From positions 18,600,001 through 18,664,000 of the forward strand of contig OZ024756.1 in NCBI GenBank assembly GCA_964016885.1: 64,000 nt of DNA, read 5' to 3'. The DNA is from Eledone cirrhosa (lineage: Eukaryota). Below the pieces are notes generated by a model. It searched no databases and was not told the DNA's origin. It was given only the letters and a program-made list of their open reading frames with translations. A program made the translations under genes and the position numbers. Below, piece by piece: positions 3,859 to 56,626 of the stretch. Each line of letters begins with the position of its first letter. The first letter of the stretch is position 1.

Positions 3859-5341
3859 AATAAATGCTTTGAACATAGCTTTGATTCTTGTGAATTCTAT
3901 ATAACTGCTCTGTAGAACAACTGATGTTATTACATTGAGCTATTTATCTTACTGGTAATAAATTACGGGCCTTCACTGTTTAGGGTTTAAAATATACATA
4001 ACTATAAAAAGTTTTAGTATATACATAACCATAAATAGTATTCTTAATATTATATATATATATATATATATATATATATATATATATATATATATATATA
4101 TATATATATGTGTGTGTGTGTATTTTACACTTAGCTTCCTTCCTAACCTAGTAAAAAAAAAAAAATATTAGTCAACAGTAAAATTTCACTGAAACGTAGT
4201 TATTTGGAGCACGACAAGTTGGAGTGATCTGTTGTAGGTTATTTCATTGGAAAACCAGAAAGCTCAAACCTAGGTGTATTCGTTACTATGATGATATCAT
4301 TGTGGTTGCGTAGATCAATATACTCAGCTGATTGCTAGCTTCCAATTGTTATTGTGATATTATGAAACAACCAGGAAGCCGGATATAATGATTTTTACTA
4401 TCCCATACACACACACACACACACACACACACACACACACGCACATATATATATATATATATATATGTGTGTGTGTGTGTATATATATATATATATATAC
4501 ACACATATATATCAATATTATAAATTATATATATGTATGTATATATATATGTGTGTGTGTTTGTGTGTACACAAGCATATGTATGTGTGTATGTATGTTA
4601 GTGTGTGTGTATATATGTGCCTCTGTGTGCGTGTGTGTGAAACCCCCCTCTCTCTCTCTGTACCTGTGTGTGTGTGTGTATGTGTAATTACGTCCGGTCA
4701 TATGACCTGCTATCATTAATATCTCTAAAAGAATGTTTTTCAGAATCATGTTTCACCTTTTACTGCCGGATCCATTGAACCAATTTCTCTTTAGAATTCC
4801 TCACCCGCAGCCCACCCCAATTTCCACAGCTTCTTGGTACTTTTCCATTCCCACTGGCTTCTTCCTATTATGACTTCCAAACATCTCTTTACCAAATTCT
4901 TTGAGTCACATTCTGGACTTTCCTTTGAAACATCAAAATATATTAATGTAATCATAACTTCCAACGCAGACACCAGAACATAATACTAATGCATAATATA
5001 CTTGTTGTTTTTGCTGTTGTTGCTGCTGTTGTGATTGTTGTGATTGTTGTTGTTTTTATTGCTGTTGTTGCTATTGTTCTTGTTGCTATTGTTGTTGTTG
5101 CTGCTGCTGTTGATTTTTTTTGTTGTTGTTGTTTAGATTCCAAGGCCATCTCGTATAAAGATGAGCTATGATGAAAAGCATTCCGATGATATTTTGTTAA
5201 TATTACTTTATTCAATGTAGAAAATTAGATACCATCATTTTAAAGTTGGTAGTTCGGTATGGATTTTTAAGAGAAATTTGGCTGTTATTTCTAGCAAGTC
5301 AGAGATCACCTAATATTCCCTTTCATTATTTTTGTTATTGT

Positions 5342-5545
5342 AGGCAGAATCGGTAGAGCGTCGGACAACATGCTTTGCAGCATAGAGTTACGGCCTTTTA
5401 GGTTCTGAGTTCAAATCCCACATAGGTTAGCTTTGCCTTTAATCCTTACGAGGTTGATAAAATAAAGCACCAGTCGATTTAATCGACCCCCCCCCCCCCC
5501 AAAAAAAAAATAAAAATTGCTGGTCTATAGTAGAAATCGTTATTT
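5342..5545 (+). mobile_element. tRNA-derived SINE
   Basis: A-box-like ggcagaatcggtaga, B-box gagttcaaatccc, body ctttgccttt..atccttacg.ggttgataaaataaag. Confidence 0.8.
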
Positions 5546-6054
5546 TTGTTATTGTAATTGTTGTTTTATCCCAGGTAACCCGTGATGAAGCAGTTTTTAT
5601 AATACTGGGAATGCAAATAATTGAAAATAAAAAGTTCTGCTGTCATAGGTATATTCGGAGAGAGAAGGGCGATGTAGTCTAGATATATTAGGGGATGAAT
5701 ATAGTTAGACATAATCTGGAATATATTTGGAATGATGAAAGGCGATGTAGTCTGACGAAGTTAGACTATTCTGGTATATATTTAGGGTGGGGGAAGTTAG
5801 TCGTAGTCTGGGGTATATATGGGGATGGGTGGGTGTTTGAAGTTAGAGGTAGTCTAACTTCAAACCCCCAATATATATATATATATTTGTGGTGGTGAAG
5901 TTAGACTATTCTGGGGTATATTTGGGGTGGGGAGGTTAGACGTAGTTTGGGATATATTTAGTGGGGTTAAGTTAGACTGTTCTGGGATATATTTGGTGGG
6001 GGTGAAGTTAGACTATTCTGAGGTATAATTGTGGTGGGGATGTTATACGTACAT

Positions 6055-6780
6055 AGAAGTTAGACATACTTAGAAGTGAGACGTACTTAGAAGTGAGACG
6101 TATTCAGAAGTTAGACATACTCAGAAGTTAGACGTACTCAGAAATTAGACTACTTAGAAGTTAGACGTACTCAGAAGTAAGACTTACTCAGAAGTTTGAC
6201 GTACTCAGAAATTAAACGCACTCAGAAGTTATACGTGCTTAGAAGTTAGACGTACTTAGAAGTTAGACGTACTTAGAAGTTAGACGTACTCAGAAGTAAG
6301 ACGCACTCAGAAGTTATACGTACTTAGAAGTAAGGCGTACTCGGAAGTTAGACGTACATAGAAGTTAGACTACCTACATTTTATACGTACTTAGTAGTTA
6401 GAGTTAGACGTACTCAGAAATTAGACGTACTCAGAAGGTAAACGTACTTAGAAGTTAGATATACTTAGAAGTTAGACGCACTCAGAAGTTAGACGGACTC
6501 AGAAGTTAGACGTACTCAGAAATGATATTACTTACAAGTTAGACGTACTTAGAAGTTAAACTACTTACAAGTTAGACAGACTCAGAAGTTAGATGTCCTT
6601 AGAAGTTAGACGTACTCAGATGTTAGACGTACTTAGTAATTAGATGTACTTAGAAGTGAGGCGTACTTAGTAGTTAGACGTACTCAGAAGTTAGGCGTAC
6701 TTAGTAGTTAGACGTACTTAGAAGTTAGACGCCTACCCAGAGGTTAGACGTATTTAGAAGTTAGACGTACTCAGAAGTTA
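6055..6780 (+). repeat. 17-bp minisatellite (AGAAGTTAGACGTACTY)n, preceded by a related degenerate repeat at about 5670-6050
   Basis: About 40 tandem copies visible directly. Confidence 0.92.
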
Positions 6781-6941
6781 TTATGTATTTTCCATTTTTT
6801 TTTGTAGATTATATGCATTGCACCAAAGTGGTTTTATTTCTATATATTATATTATAAAAAGACAAGTTTTTATACTTTCAGCTCAATAATTACAGGATAT
6901 TAACGCGTTTTTTAAACTCCATTTTCCATTTATATATATAT

Positions 6942-7131
6942 ATATGAAAAATTCGGGACCCTGACGGCTGAGCTCCGGCCGTTTCAACAGTTAGATCCGG
7001 ATCTAGCTGTTGAAACGGTCGGAGCTCAGCCGTCGGTGTTTCGAATTTTTCATATTACCCACTCTACTACCCCAAGTATCGAGTACTTTGGTGAGTAAAG
7101 GACTAATTTGTTTTTACCACCTCCAATCTGA
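6942..7131 (+). mobile_element. Foldback insert (family A): palindrome centred at 6998/6999 plus tail, carrying the 3' half of an HHR
   Basis: Arms 6942-6998 and 6999-7055; GAAACGGT...GCCGTC stem III; tail actc...gagtacttt; TA/CA flanks. Confidence 0.7.
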
Positions 7132-8759
7132 TACACACACACACACACACACACACACACACACACACACATATATATATATATATATATATATATATAT
7201 ATATATATATATATATATATATATATATATATATATATATATATAAAAAGAAGTAGTTAAAAGATGGTTAAAAAAGTTCCATATATTTTATTATGCGCAT
7301 TTCGAAAACAACATCATCGTGCTCAGAACACTCCCTGAAACATCAGTATTACATGTTGAGTGCTACTTATCTGATATATGCATAGTTTTATTGTTCTACA
7401 ATATTACTCACATGCTACACACACACACACACACACACACACACATATATATATATATATATATATGTTTGTGTGTGTGCATAGATACATGCATAATACA
7501 CCAATGCACACATACAAGCATTTATATTCATACACATACATGCATATATATATATATATATATATAGACTTATATGTACACTTATGTATATACCCCTAAA
7601 CACACACACTCATGTTTATATATGTGTATATATGTATATATATATATGTGTGTATATATATATATATATATATATATATATATATATATATATAGTGTGT
7701 GATTGGACAGTTGTGTGTGTAGGTGTGTCTGGACCTACCTAACTACCTACCCATCTGGGTAGGTAGTTAGGTAGGTCCAGACAGGTTTTCTCCTTTAGTC
7801 ACATCTAGTTAACATGCAAAAAACACTGTCGTCTTGTTTCGCGTGTTTTTGTTGGCTTTTCATTTTTTATTTCCTATTTTCACATAGTTTTTTTTTCTTT
7901 CGTAGTTTTTGTAGCTATTGTCTTGCTCCCCCTCCTCCTACTCCGGCCACGCCTCCTCCTCTTTCTCCCCTCTCTTTCTCCCCCTCTTCCCCATCCTCAT
8001 TATCATTATCATCATCATTGTAGTTGCTGTGTAAATATCATCGACCCCATCATCATCATCGGGATCATCATCGTCATCATCATCATCATCATTATTATAA
8101 TCGTCGTCATTGTCGTGATAGTCGTCGTTATTATCGTCATTGTTTCCCTTGTTGTTGTTGTTGTTGTTGTTGTATTATTTTATTTAAAAATCTATGCATA
8201 TAGTATTCCATTTGTTGCTGTTGTCGTTTTCGTTGTCGTTGTTGTCGTCTTTTTTATTGTCGTCGTTGCCGTTTTTGACATCACTGTTTGTATCGTTGTT
8301 ATATGTATTTTATTTTAAAATATATAGAAATATTTTCCCATTCGTTTCAGTCGTCGCTTCCATTGCTGTTGTTGTTATTGTTGCTGTGGTCGTTGACATT
8401 GTTGTTGACGTCGTTGTTGTATGTATTTTATTTTCAGATATATATAAATATTTTCCCAGGCCCATATTTTCAAGCAATATTTCACATCACCAGTAATCAA
8501 GGTGTTTGAGATTTTTACAGACTGACACATGTCATCACGAAAAAAAAAAAGAAAATTAATATACAAACAAACCTCAACACAAAAAAATACCCACCAGAAA
8601 TAGCCTCAATCCTTCACTAAAAATACCCCCAGCCCTCCACTAAAGTTACCCCCAACCCTCCACTAAAAATACCACCACCCATCCACTAAAAAATTAAACA
8701 CGTAAATTACACAAAAAGCACACTAAAATGTAAATAAAATAAAATATGTTACAAAAATA

Positions 8760-55601: not shown

Positions 55602-55822
55602 ATATATTTCGATTATGTGAATGTCTTCATTTATTATTATTCTGAATAATAATAACTCCAGAAAACCTTTTGTAGAGTGCTTTTAATCTATTGTAAAATT
55701 ATATTCATTGAGTAATCAATGAACCATATTAATCTTTGGTTATATATATATATATATATATATATATATATATATATATATATAAACCCGAAGAGAAAAT
55801 ATTTATTTTAAGAACAGATTAA

Positions 55823-55873
55823 AGTTTAAGCAAAGAATCGTTGCTTTCACCCTTAACGAGATCTTCTGAAACT
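55823..55873 (-). ncRNA. Hammerhead-like motif with a variant core (family C)
   Basis: Minus strand: agttt CAGAAGA tctc-gttaa-gggt GAAAGCA...TGCTT aaact. The copy at 56514-56559 has CTGAAGA. Confidence 0.6.
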
Positions 55874-56165
55874 CTGAGTTATATATATATATATATATAT
55901 ATATATATATATATATATATATATATATATATATATATATATATATATATATATATATATATATATATATATATATATATATATATATATATATATATAT
56001 ATATATATATATATATATATATATATATATATATATATATATATATACAAAACGCCAGCACTTTGCAAGAGATGTCAACATGAGTGGACCTGTTATTTTT
56101 ATCTAAAGATATTTTTTCCAATCCCAACCCGCCCGCCCCTTCAATCTATCTTATTTCTCATTCTT

Positions 56166-56201
56166 TCTTCTGATGAAAGACTAGCGTCCGAAACGTTAAG
56201 A
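56166..56201 (+). ncRNA. Minimal hammerhead ribozyme in a PLE-like 3' fragment (56047-56290)
   Basis: tctt CTGATGA aagac-tagc-gtcc GAAACGTT aaga. Upstream 56095-56160 is also present at 470-535. Confidence 0.72.
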
Positions 56202-56402
56202 CCCTCTTCATGCTATATCAAGCGTTAACCTAATATATCCCTTCCATATACTGTACCGATTGTGTTGTTATTTCTGTTTACCTTTTACGTACACACACAC
56301 ACACACACACACACCTCTCTCTCTCTCTCTCTCTCTCTCTCTCTCTCTCTATATATATATATATATATATATATATATATATATATATATATATATATAT
56401 AT

Positions 56403-56626
56403 AGTAATAATAATAAATTTGAGGACTAAAATCCAAAGAGGGCTCGATAAGGATAAATATATATCAAATATATAAGAACCGTAGAGCAAATATTTATTAA
56501 AATAACAGATTGAAGTTTAAGCAAAGAATCGCTGCTTTCACCCTTAACGGGATCTTCAGAAGATCCCGTTAAGGGTGAAAGCAGCGATTCTTTGCTTAAA
56601 CTTCAATCTGTTATTTTAATAAATAT
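56403..56626 (-). mobile_element. Family C foldback insert: near-perfect palindrome centred at 56558 within the HHR core, tail to the left
   Basis: Arms 56490-56557 and 56559-56626; tail also found at 54265-54313. Confidence 0.75.

Follow-up and report, generated by a model that had tools for sequence, protein, structure and literature searches.

A duplicated bulged hairpin near the copy ends of Hydra-clade Penelope-like elements and the part it may play in positioning reverse transcriptase

A Hydra-clade element and hairpin-bearing stubs in one window

The window, a stretch of 64,000 nucleotides on Eledone cirrhosa contig OZ024756.1, holds at 767-4050 a Penelope-like element (PLE), one of a group that comprises the closest relatives of telomerase RT. 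Its ORF (1014..2232, + strand) is a 5'-truncated C-terminal half with one frameshift near 2024-2032, and it covers the thumb and a CxCx5C linker preceding a C-terminal GIY-YIG domain, where frame 2032 shows CxxC and CxH around conserved E and N and no CCHH. The N-terminal RWK and DKT motifs are found in its best homologues, the window copy being truncated at its 5' side. The ORF matches Hydra-type P0001 at E 2e-42 versus E 0.01 for Neptune-type P0033, and a sequence comparison with solved structures gave no match. The element is inserted in (TA)n/simple repeat and carries near its 3' end a hammerhead (core 3816..3852, +, a CCGAAGA variant) and then hairpin 1 (3907..3943, +), with a GCTC/GAGC outer stem, a 5-bp inner stem, a TT bulge and a degenerate 3' TAT. 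An inverted, 5'-truncated copy of the element's own 3' end (767..1052, −) stops 7 nt before the hairpin position, at what is called site A below. Excerpts of Craig et al. (2021; PMC8557442) describe Hydra-clade PLEs as having a short ORF with RWK and DKT motifs, a CxCx5C linker, a C-terminal GIY-YIG without CCHH, a canonical hammerhead, (TA)n targets, and an inverted truncated copy with a one-sided tail. Those that fall within the truncated copy are shared here, and on such sequence criteria element 767-4050 is assigned to the Hydra clade. A Neptune-type PLE was rejected, since its CX2-5CxxC linker and CCHH endonuclease are absent and its match reaches only E 0.01.

The hairpin of this element recurs. 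The sequence-only reading had listed ten sites with a stem of ACTC/GAGT or GCTC/GAGC followed by NCT, downstream of hammerheads in unrelated families, and the quoted letters were confirmed at all ten. Altogether, the window has 11 hairpin sites in nine sequence families, as 7061, 36195 and 53639 belong to a single family of 81-93% identity. The consensus is RCUC-[variable stem-loop]-UN bulge-GAGY-RCU: beyond the 4-bp stem lie a 2-nt 3' bulge with a leading U and a second, variable stem. The first inner pair is formed at 9 of the 11 sites by a strict descriptor, and also at 3907, whose 3' trinucleotide is TAT and not NCT; it is broken at 17278. The proposed swap between A-T and G-C is real in the window, with ACTC/GAGT at eight sites (six families) and GCTC/GAGC at three. 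As for the hammerhead, a CUGAnGA-type core lies upstream of six cited sites (3907, 17278, 35441, 55184, 55655 and 56437), but only the 3' half of a hammerhead is kept in the 7061/36195/53639 family, as judged by eye, and none was seen upstream of 7329. Conversely, no hairpin was found with a Hydra-like hammerhead at 19215-19239 (−).

Most of these hairpins sit in fold-backs. Hairpin 1 at 7061..7087 (+) lies in fold-back 6945-7133, whose inverted arm stops 8 nt before the stem, and is 45 nt from a microsatellite; a hairpin of the same form at 7330..7364 (+) is 53 nt ahead of one. At 17030..17036 (+), the 3' half of a hairpin remains in an internally deleted copy (16968-17081) of the 36195 family. 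The interval 17203..17300 (+) holds a hammerhead (CUGAAUGA core) and a hairpin (17278-17300) with a broken inner stem and a CT bulge, within fold-back 17103-17337, whose arm stops 5 nt before the stem. One hairpin outside the ten listed, at 17843..17884 (−), has a 7-bp inner stem and a TC bulge and forms the tail of fold-back 17953-18194, the CUGAnGA-type core sitting in the other arm. On the minus strand, 35443..35554 comprises hammerhead 35518-35554 and hairpin 35443-35466 in fold-back 35406-35663, and 56439..56559 comprises hammerhead 56536-56559 and a long-loop hairpin (56439-56487) in fold-back 56404-56622; in both, the other arm stops 6 nt before the stem. Also on this strand, 55186..55276 contains hammerhead 55254-55276 and hairpin 55186-55207. 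The remaining sites are on the plus strand: 36189..36221, with site A at 36189 and a hairpin at 36195-36221; hairpin 1 at 53639..53665, in fold-back 53498-53710, whose arm stops 9 nt before the stem; and 55545..55681, with a hammerhead from 55545 and a hairpin at 55655-55681, in fold-back 55319-55740, whose arm stops 5 nt before the stem. Only one of the nine families, that of element 767-4050, is tied to an ORF; the other eight are ORF-less stubs that probably belong to the Hydra clade, judging from the motif, the hammerhead type and the (TA)n fold-back anatomy.

Across the window, the loose pattern of the sequence-only reading is only weakly enriched (16 versus a shuffle mean of 7.2, maximum 16, 60 shuffles), but it is strongly so 25-65 nt ahead of a microsatellite (10 versus 0.2, maximum 2), a distance filter picked post hoc after inspection of the window, the independent test being the protein-fetched loci described below. 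The bulged form occurs 10 times versus 1.1 in shuffles (maximum 4); of these 10, the match at 45312, within a LINE ORF, is due to chance. Matches at 2942-2961, 30739, 41563, 42154 and 45294-45345 have no element end nearby and were set aside as chance. As the origin of the motif itself, chance is ruled out by the shuffle tests in the window and in the protein-fetched loci, and MITE or Helitron ends are ruled out by the attached hammerheads and PLE ORF. With Rfam 15 covariance models, six Hydra loci gave seven weak matches, none at gathering score, and the best 150 of 348 window matches were low-complexity or palindrome artefacts below that score.

The motif in Hydra-clade loci beyond the window

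The motif extends beyond the 64-kb window. In a blind set of marine loci, retrieved by Hydra protein alone without use of the motif, 21 of 27 families have the first pattern no more than 170 nt upstream of the ORF anchor, and 16 of 27 have it twice, versus a mean of 0.435 and a maximum of 3 in 200 shuffles; in ORF windows, it was found in 0-1 of 26-27. In the first members of the other six families the pattern is missing (one truncated, the others variant or decayed). The leader follows a regular order: after the hammerhead come TA-rich patch A and hairpin 1, then patch B and hairpin 2, and the ATG stands about 20 nt further on. The twin hairpins are 54-67 nt apart in 15 of 16 families (about 60), and the ATG follows the end of hairpin 2 by 12-31 nt in 19 of 21. 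The claim that PLE tails hold, downstream of the hammerhead, a cis-motif that is conserved and covaries is borne out by these loci and by the compensatory changes described below, while the duplication, and the position of both classes of copy end just 5' of a hairpin, go beyond it.

Published Hydra consensi from coral and sea cucumber, in the part of File S7 of PMC8557442 that was covered, also carry the motif, and in one it stands twice ahead of the ATG. Conservation in PLEs at large was not supported, however. The motif was found in Hydra-clade elements, but it was absent downstream of Neptune-type hammerheads, was not at terminal positions of the published Naiad and Chlamys consensi covered by an exact 9-mer search, and has no GCUC/GAGC counterpart in the Poseidon RNA fragment printed in Fig. 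S1B of PMC11167929. Scanning prokaryote genomes with the motif as the starting point yielded 122 loci versus about 144 expected by chance, plus one viral; two of these 123 (L169 and L260) directly precede a Hydra ORF, and the remainder were treated as chance. No Hydra or Neptune-type ORF was found in the viral contigs.

Base pairing and strand

Pairing and compensatory changes were counted by scripted, pattern-anchored pairing. The first inner pair is formed in 37 of 37 hairpins, and only when the register leaves a 2-nt 3' bulge (26 C-G, 10 U-A and 1 U-G); the second pair forms in 27 of 37 versus 14.0 when permuted, and the third in 22 of 31 versus 12.4. On a tree of 19 proteins with a median identity of 47%, the inner stem underwent at least 22 compensatory switches. 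In the outer stem, a double change to GCAC/GUGC is seen in 2 of 69 hairpins, and outer pair 1 of the marine loci is G-C in 67 of 69 and A.C in two, the latter of which would favour the antisense strand. The strict motif occurs 104 times in sense versus 4 in antisense among 93 loci, and the inner stem has G.U in 10 cases versus A.C in 4. The loop length varies, as had been claimed, here from 6 to 32 nt, and pairing probability in context exceeds 0.5 for 21 of 40 hairpins. Because of this variation MAFFT misaligned the 5' arms, which confined tool-based covariation to 10 equal-length hairpins, where it was not significant (32 of 500 shuffles). On the sense strand, the motif forms a structure whose base pairing is conserved.

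Copy ends lie at fixed offsets from the hairpins

Genomic copies end in (TA)n either at A, and are then tailless, or at B, and are then tailed. Among 62 (TA)n ends downstream of a hammerhead, 43 are without a hairpin, 19 have one and none has both, and end lengths are bimodal. For 25 such ends a read-through homologue was available, and 17 of these junctions fall 3-11 nt before a stem, at hairpin 1 in 13 cases and at hairpin 2 in four. By eye, the eight junctions that did not score comprise two internal TA runs, two simple-repeat matches, two that are not element 3' ends, one mis-registered and one with a damaged hairpin. TA microhomology is present at junctions. In public RAD-seq data, in which few loci are oversampled, the 36195 family breaks into (AT)n 5 nt before the stem, at position 36189, in 3795 of 21764 and 3608 of 22555 reads and in 313 of 22624 and 274 of 21513 contigs. 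This break is the largest listed class of loose ends in all four runs; hairpin 2 of window families was not seen among the loose ends listed. Hence, with genomic junctions as a proxy, the hairpin keeps a fixed distance to the cDNA start.

A probable positional role in priming and its alternatives

The bulged hairpin, of which two copies stand in the leader after the hammerhead and ahead of the start codon, likely binds RT, with priming set a few bases 5' of the stem; a link to priming is most likely, and it is a positional one. It seems probable that each hairpin positions RT for internal priming, that the tail is the stretch between two starts, and that the signal has to come from a tandem or circular RNA. 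The GIY-YIG domain would nick the (TA)n target, the freed target 3' end would anneal to a short TA patch, and RT held at the hairpin would copy upstream, so that the guiding hairpin would never be copied into that end. The PLE "tail" would then be the roughly 60 nt from A to B, hairpin 1 included. If the two target strands were primed from A and from B, perhaps with a separate RT subunit at each hairpin, and the two truncated cDNAs were then joined, the outcome would be fold-backs with a one-sided tail, as are seen throughout the window. As a copy would not carry at its 3' end the hairpin from which it was started, the template would have to be either a tandem read-through or an RNA that was cut by the hammerhead and circularised. 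A more elaborate version, which we favour somewhat less than its opposite, is a twin-hairpin RNA ruler, with an RT dimer on two identical bulged hairpins 60 nt apart priming both target strands from two internal sites; each signal would lie outside the end it creates, and the template would therefore have to be a hammerhead-made circle or a tandem.

The same fixed offsets are compatible with an action at the DNA level, in which a hairpin in ssDNA (cDNA or a displaced strand) or a spaced inverted repeat would steer the GIY-YIG endonuclease to cut the element's own intermediate at patch A or B and would thereby set the copy ends. In favour of this are the two A.C outer pairs, the ascription of the tail to EN-mediated resolution in excerpts of PMC8557442, and the requirement of the D. 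virilis tail for EN recognition, as cited in the part of PMC11167929 that was covered. Nevertheless, the 6-32 nt loops together with the covarying inner stem exclude plain double-stranded recognition, G.U outnumbers A.C in that stem, the TA microhomology fits primer annealing, and both Poseidon tail ends were mapped as RT starts (PMC11167929, in part). An endonuclease signal is thus unlikely. Somewhat less probable again is a general signal for RNP assembly or translation (cis-preference, or cap-independent initiation on ribozyme-cut RNA), with the nearby TA patches incidental. Although the spacing of 12-31 nt between hairpin 2 and the ATG speaks for such a signal, ends lie 3-11 nt upstream of both hairpins and not solely of the ATG-proximal one, their lengths are bimodal, and they fall near hairpins even though the leader and 3' UTR are AT-rich all along. 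Finally, the sequence-only reading had suggested a tertiary partner of the hammerhead, to which a folding switch may be added. The hairpin does sit downstream of the hammerhead, and the Poseidon hammerhead cuts only with protein according to excerpts of PMC11167929, but the suggestion gained no positive support and is very improbable: the hairpin is duplicated at a variable distance, Neptune-type hammerheads lack it, and there is no conserved ribozyme complement, AGTGC being found in 5 of 41 and AGT in 38 of 41, the latter near chance and mostly within helices. Positioning of RT thus remains the preferred reading.

Related systems and significance

RTs of LINEs such as R2 and L2/UnaL2 bind 3'-terminal stem-loops, and hepadnavirus epsilon is a bulged stem-loop; as proposed for the hairpins, structured RNA recruits RT in cis and fixes the start of synthesis. 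LINE signals, however, lie within the part that is copied, close to its 3' end, and pass to each copy, whereas the Hydra-clade hairpin is 3' of the start, left out of that end, and duplicated. In addition, epsilon relies on protein priming, with its own bulge as the template. The nearest biochemical parallel is Poseidon PAc, for which excerpts of Frangieh et al. (2024; PMC11167929) report that RT in vitro starts at two internal sites bounding the tail and needs RNA 3' of both. The tail as a stretch between two internal starts and the need for RNA 3' of them are thus common to PAc and the preferred reading, as are AT-rich targets, extension of both strands and a predicted dimer. In contrast, the PAc starts are within the ORF, in an AC-rich loop that has no homology to the target, and so have another geometry, and those excerpts report no duplicated recognition element. 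Cervera and de la Peña (2014; PMC4209133, in part) placed a minimal hammerhead in the pLTR of PLEs and proposed that cut RNAs circularise and that transposition needs more-than-unit copies. No downstream motif is described in that part, and the hairpin layout would add to the proposal a concrete reason for a joined (tandem or circular) template. Likewise, the covered sections of PMC8557442 describe no conserved tail or leader hairpin and no two motif-linked end sites, and no description of the twin-hairpin motif was found in the papers covered.

How PLEs choose their template and how tails, fold-backs and partial tandems arise is an open question, as excerpts of PMC8557442 and PMC11167929 put it. 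With its invariant bases, covarying stem and two fixed junction offsets, this motif of 20-30 nt permits direct tests by point mutation. Moreover, it provides a compact RNA handle for PLE-based insertion tools and a marker by which stubs that lack an ORF can be placed in the Hydra clade, in genomes that are cephalopod-like or come from corals and other invertebrates. If the ruler reading is true, the twin-hairpin layout would explain why these elements have a tail, one-sided fold-backs and pseudo-LTRs, and what the ribozyme is for in this sister group of telomerase; in particular, the hairpin pair would likely account for the long-puzzling one-sided tail of PLEs.

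Hairpin sites in the window

The window is eukaryotic, with a G+C content of 37% and abundant (TA)n, (CA)n and satellites, and gives a cephalopod-like impression. Between (TA)n runs lie short fold-back elements, each made up of one inverted and one direct copy plus a tail left unpaired on one side; several contain hammerhead cores. All ten sites at which the sequence-only reading had placed an RCTC...GAGYNCT hairpin are present, as is an eleventh at 17843-17884 (minus strand), and the 11 sites represent nine families. Against chance, the loose pattern as such is weak (16 matches versus a shuffle mean of 7.2 and maximum of 16), whereas its restricted forms are enriched: ten matches lie 25-65 nt ahead of a microsatellite versus 0.2 expected, and ten take the bulged-hairpin form versus 1.1 expected. 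The inverted arm ends 5-9 nt 5' of the stem in seven complete-hairpin fold-backs and 68 nt 5' of it in the eighth (17953); in two further fold-backs with the ACTC half alone, it ends 7 and 13 nt before. None of these ten has a two-sided tail.

In the element at 767-4050 the ORF is represented by its C-terminal half, which contains a CxCx5C linker, GIY-YIG domain and CxxC/CxH motifs. The element's match to a Hydra-type protein has an E value of 2e-42, that to a Neptune-type protein one of 0.01. Its homologues (~705 aa) have the RWK and DKT motifs, which PMC8557442 gives as marks of the Hydra clade within the Penelope-like elements (PLEs), which targets (TA)n and carries hammerheads. The clade of the other eight window families, all of them stubs, is presumed.

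Hammerhead or fold-back elements with the hairpin absent or half only lie at 19215-19239 and 59537-59568 (both minus strand), 17508-17778 and 21048-21333; these are decayed copies or exceptions. A minimal hammerhead of Neptune/Poseidon type (GAAACGUU; 56170-56193, plus strand) has no hairpin downstream and forms a negative case within the window. Elsewhere, the minus strand carries a LINE encoding AP endonuclease, RT and zf-RVT (1146 aa), with a 642-aa ORF upstream (43362-48727), adjoining a second endonuclease-bearing LINE remnant (41273-43375); a 78-bp satellite (~50 copies) occupies 24578-28438, and a 190-220 bp SINE-like repeat forms tandem or inverted runs at 29100-35105.

The motif in Hydra leaders and its clade range

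An alignment of 16 Hydra proteins, used as query with the motif not consulted, fetched 78 loci from metagenomes and, from MAGs, 15 contaminant contigs. These gave 48 N-terminal anchors, 39 with 170 nt upstream, in 27 families, of which the first member was scored. The loose pattern occurs upstream of the ORF in 21 of the 27 and twice in 16, against 0.435 in shuffles (maximum 3 of 200), 0-1 of 26-27 in ORF windows and 3/27 on the reverse strand. Of the six missing families, one is represented by a truncated first member, although its relatives have two hairpins, and in the other five the leader is variant or decayed. In order, the Hydra leader consists of the hammerhead, a 30-60 nt spacer, hairpin 1, a 30-40 nt spacer, hairpin 2, a further ~20 nt and the ATG. 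In PMC8557442 File S7, the motif is present in Hydra consensi from Acropora and Apostichopus and, as a variant whose outer pair is changed, in a copepod consensus. Exact 9-mer matches across that whole supplement, in a search that can miss matches across line breaks, fall in six places (four in the Hydra file, one each in the Naiad and Chlamys files). A motif-first scan gave 123 loci, two of them further Hydra leaders and the rest taken as chance.

The proposal that the motif is conserved across PLE families is supported by the Hydra-clade loci but not by the Neptune-type hammerheads compared. A Neptune-type protein from a locus flank, used as query, gave 47 further loci with four strict motifs, versus 104 sense and four antisense in the 93 Hydra-query loci. 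Classified by eye, 15 listed hammerhead groups comprise ten Neptune-type, three chance cores within ORFs and two Hydra-type neighbours. Within 230 nt after the ten distinct Neptune-type hammerheads no hairpin of the element's own was found; the sole match, at locus L015, belongs to an adjacent Hydra copy's leader beyond a TA junction. The Poseidon comparison covers the RNA letters of one figure, in which no GCUC/GAGC motif was found.

Eukaryotic PLEs also occur on contigs labelled as bacterial genomes or MAGs (L079-L140, L169), which are host contamination. L123-L134 and L138-L140 are numerous, nearly identical RT loci of PLE-like type in which no endonuclease part was matched; they lie on small "chromosomes" of a single MAG and may represent a eukaryotic PLE that has no endonuclease.

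Pairing and covariation

Among 37 hairpins of 21 families, the nucleotide that follows GCUC is paired with the one preceding the 2-nt bulge in every case (26 C-G, 10 U-A, 1 U-G), and alternative registers form this first inner pair in at most 23. The second and third inner pairs form in 27/37 and 22/31 (permuted partners, 14.0 and 12.4), with all four Watson-Crick types. Placed on a tree built from 19 of the proteins (39-78% identical), the inner pairs require a minimum of 22 compensatory switches. The bulge is UU in 23, UC in 8 and UA in 6, its initial U being fixed by the search definition, and the 3' flank is ACU in 34/37. In a fuzzier search, the bulge starts with U in 67 of 69 hairpins, and the outer stem includes GCAC/GUGC twice and A.C twice. 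On the opposing side, prediction in context has only 21 of 40 hairpins mostly formed, and covariation does not reach significance in a subset of 10 sequences: a marginal fold, which would depend on a protein.

Copy ends and a proposed mechanism

Among 62 (TA)n ends lying 20-260 nt past a hammerhead-like core in the fetched loci and window, 43 include no hairpin, 19 include one and none includes two, and typical Hydra ends cluster ~36-69 and 101-132 nt past GAAA. Where a read-through homologue exists, 17 of 25 ends lie 3-11 nt 5' of a stem (13 at hairpin 1, four at hairpin 2), usually with TA microhomology of a few bases; the eight outside this class were read by eye as two internal TA runs, two matches in simple repeats, two sites other than element 3' ends, one mis-registered end and one whose hairpin is damaged. 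The window family at 36128-36270 has more than 21,000 public records in each of four runs (at most three samples, two studies), and in all four runs the largest of its loose-end classes among those listed turns into (AT)n past position 36189, which lies 5 nt 5' of the stem. Hairpin 2 was not found among the loose ends listed for this family (24 rows, with 678 further rows).

At two loci, L260 (minus strand, 236) and L015 (2451), the 5' end of a Hydra copy starts with (TA)n, either directly at hairpin 1 or shortly before hairpin 2, with unrelated DNA upstream. One full turn of a circular template, or insertion into TA patches, would fit these copies, which at two are too few to establish either.

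To the observed layout, covariation, clade range as tested and end positions we add a probable mechanism. Each hairpin would hold the RT, and a nicked (TA)n end would prime on the TA patch directly 5' (site A before hairpin 1, site B before hairpin 2). A start at A would give a tailless end and a start at B a tailed one, the tail including hairpin 1; A on one strand with B on the other would give a one-tailed fold-back. The main rival, that the motif acts on the endonuclease as a signal at the DNA level, we consider unlikely. According to PMC11167929, a Poseidon PLE, predicted to be a dimer, cuts the two target strands and extends each of them, and its RT starts at two internal sites bounding the tail, RNA 3' of them being required.

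Under RT positioning, the guiding hairpin would lie 3' of the start and be left out of the end it creates. A lone copy's transcript would therefore lack this hairpin at its 3' end, and the next tandem unit or circularisation would have to supply it; a proposal for PLEs already includes cutting by the hammerhead and circularisation, with more-than-unit copies needed (PMC4209133). The proposed action resembles that of RT-recruiting stem-loops, but the hairpin differs in its duplication and its position outside the copied end. The elements, tails and fold-backs are already known. No description of the motif was found in Rfam or in the openly available literature searched, including portions of PMC8557442, PMC11167929, PMC4209133, PMC3846280, PMC6765202 and bioRxiv 10.64898/2026.07.22.740005.

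One Hydra family (locus L034, 148-210) has a single clear hairpin from hammerhead to ATG, and in this family the normal tail class is predicted to be absent.
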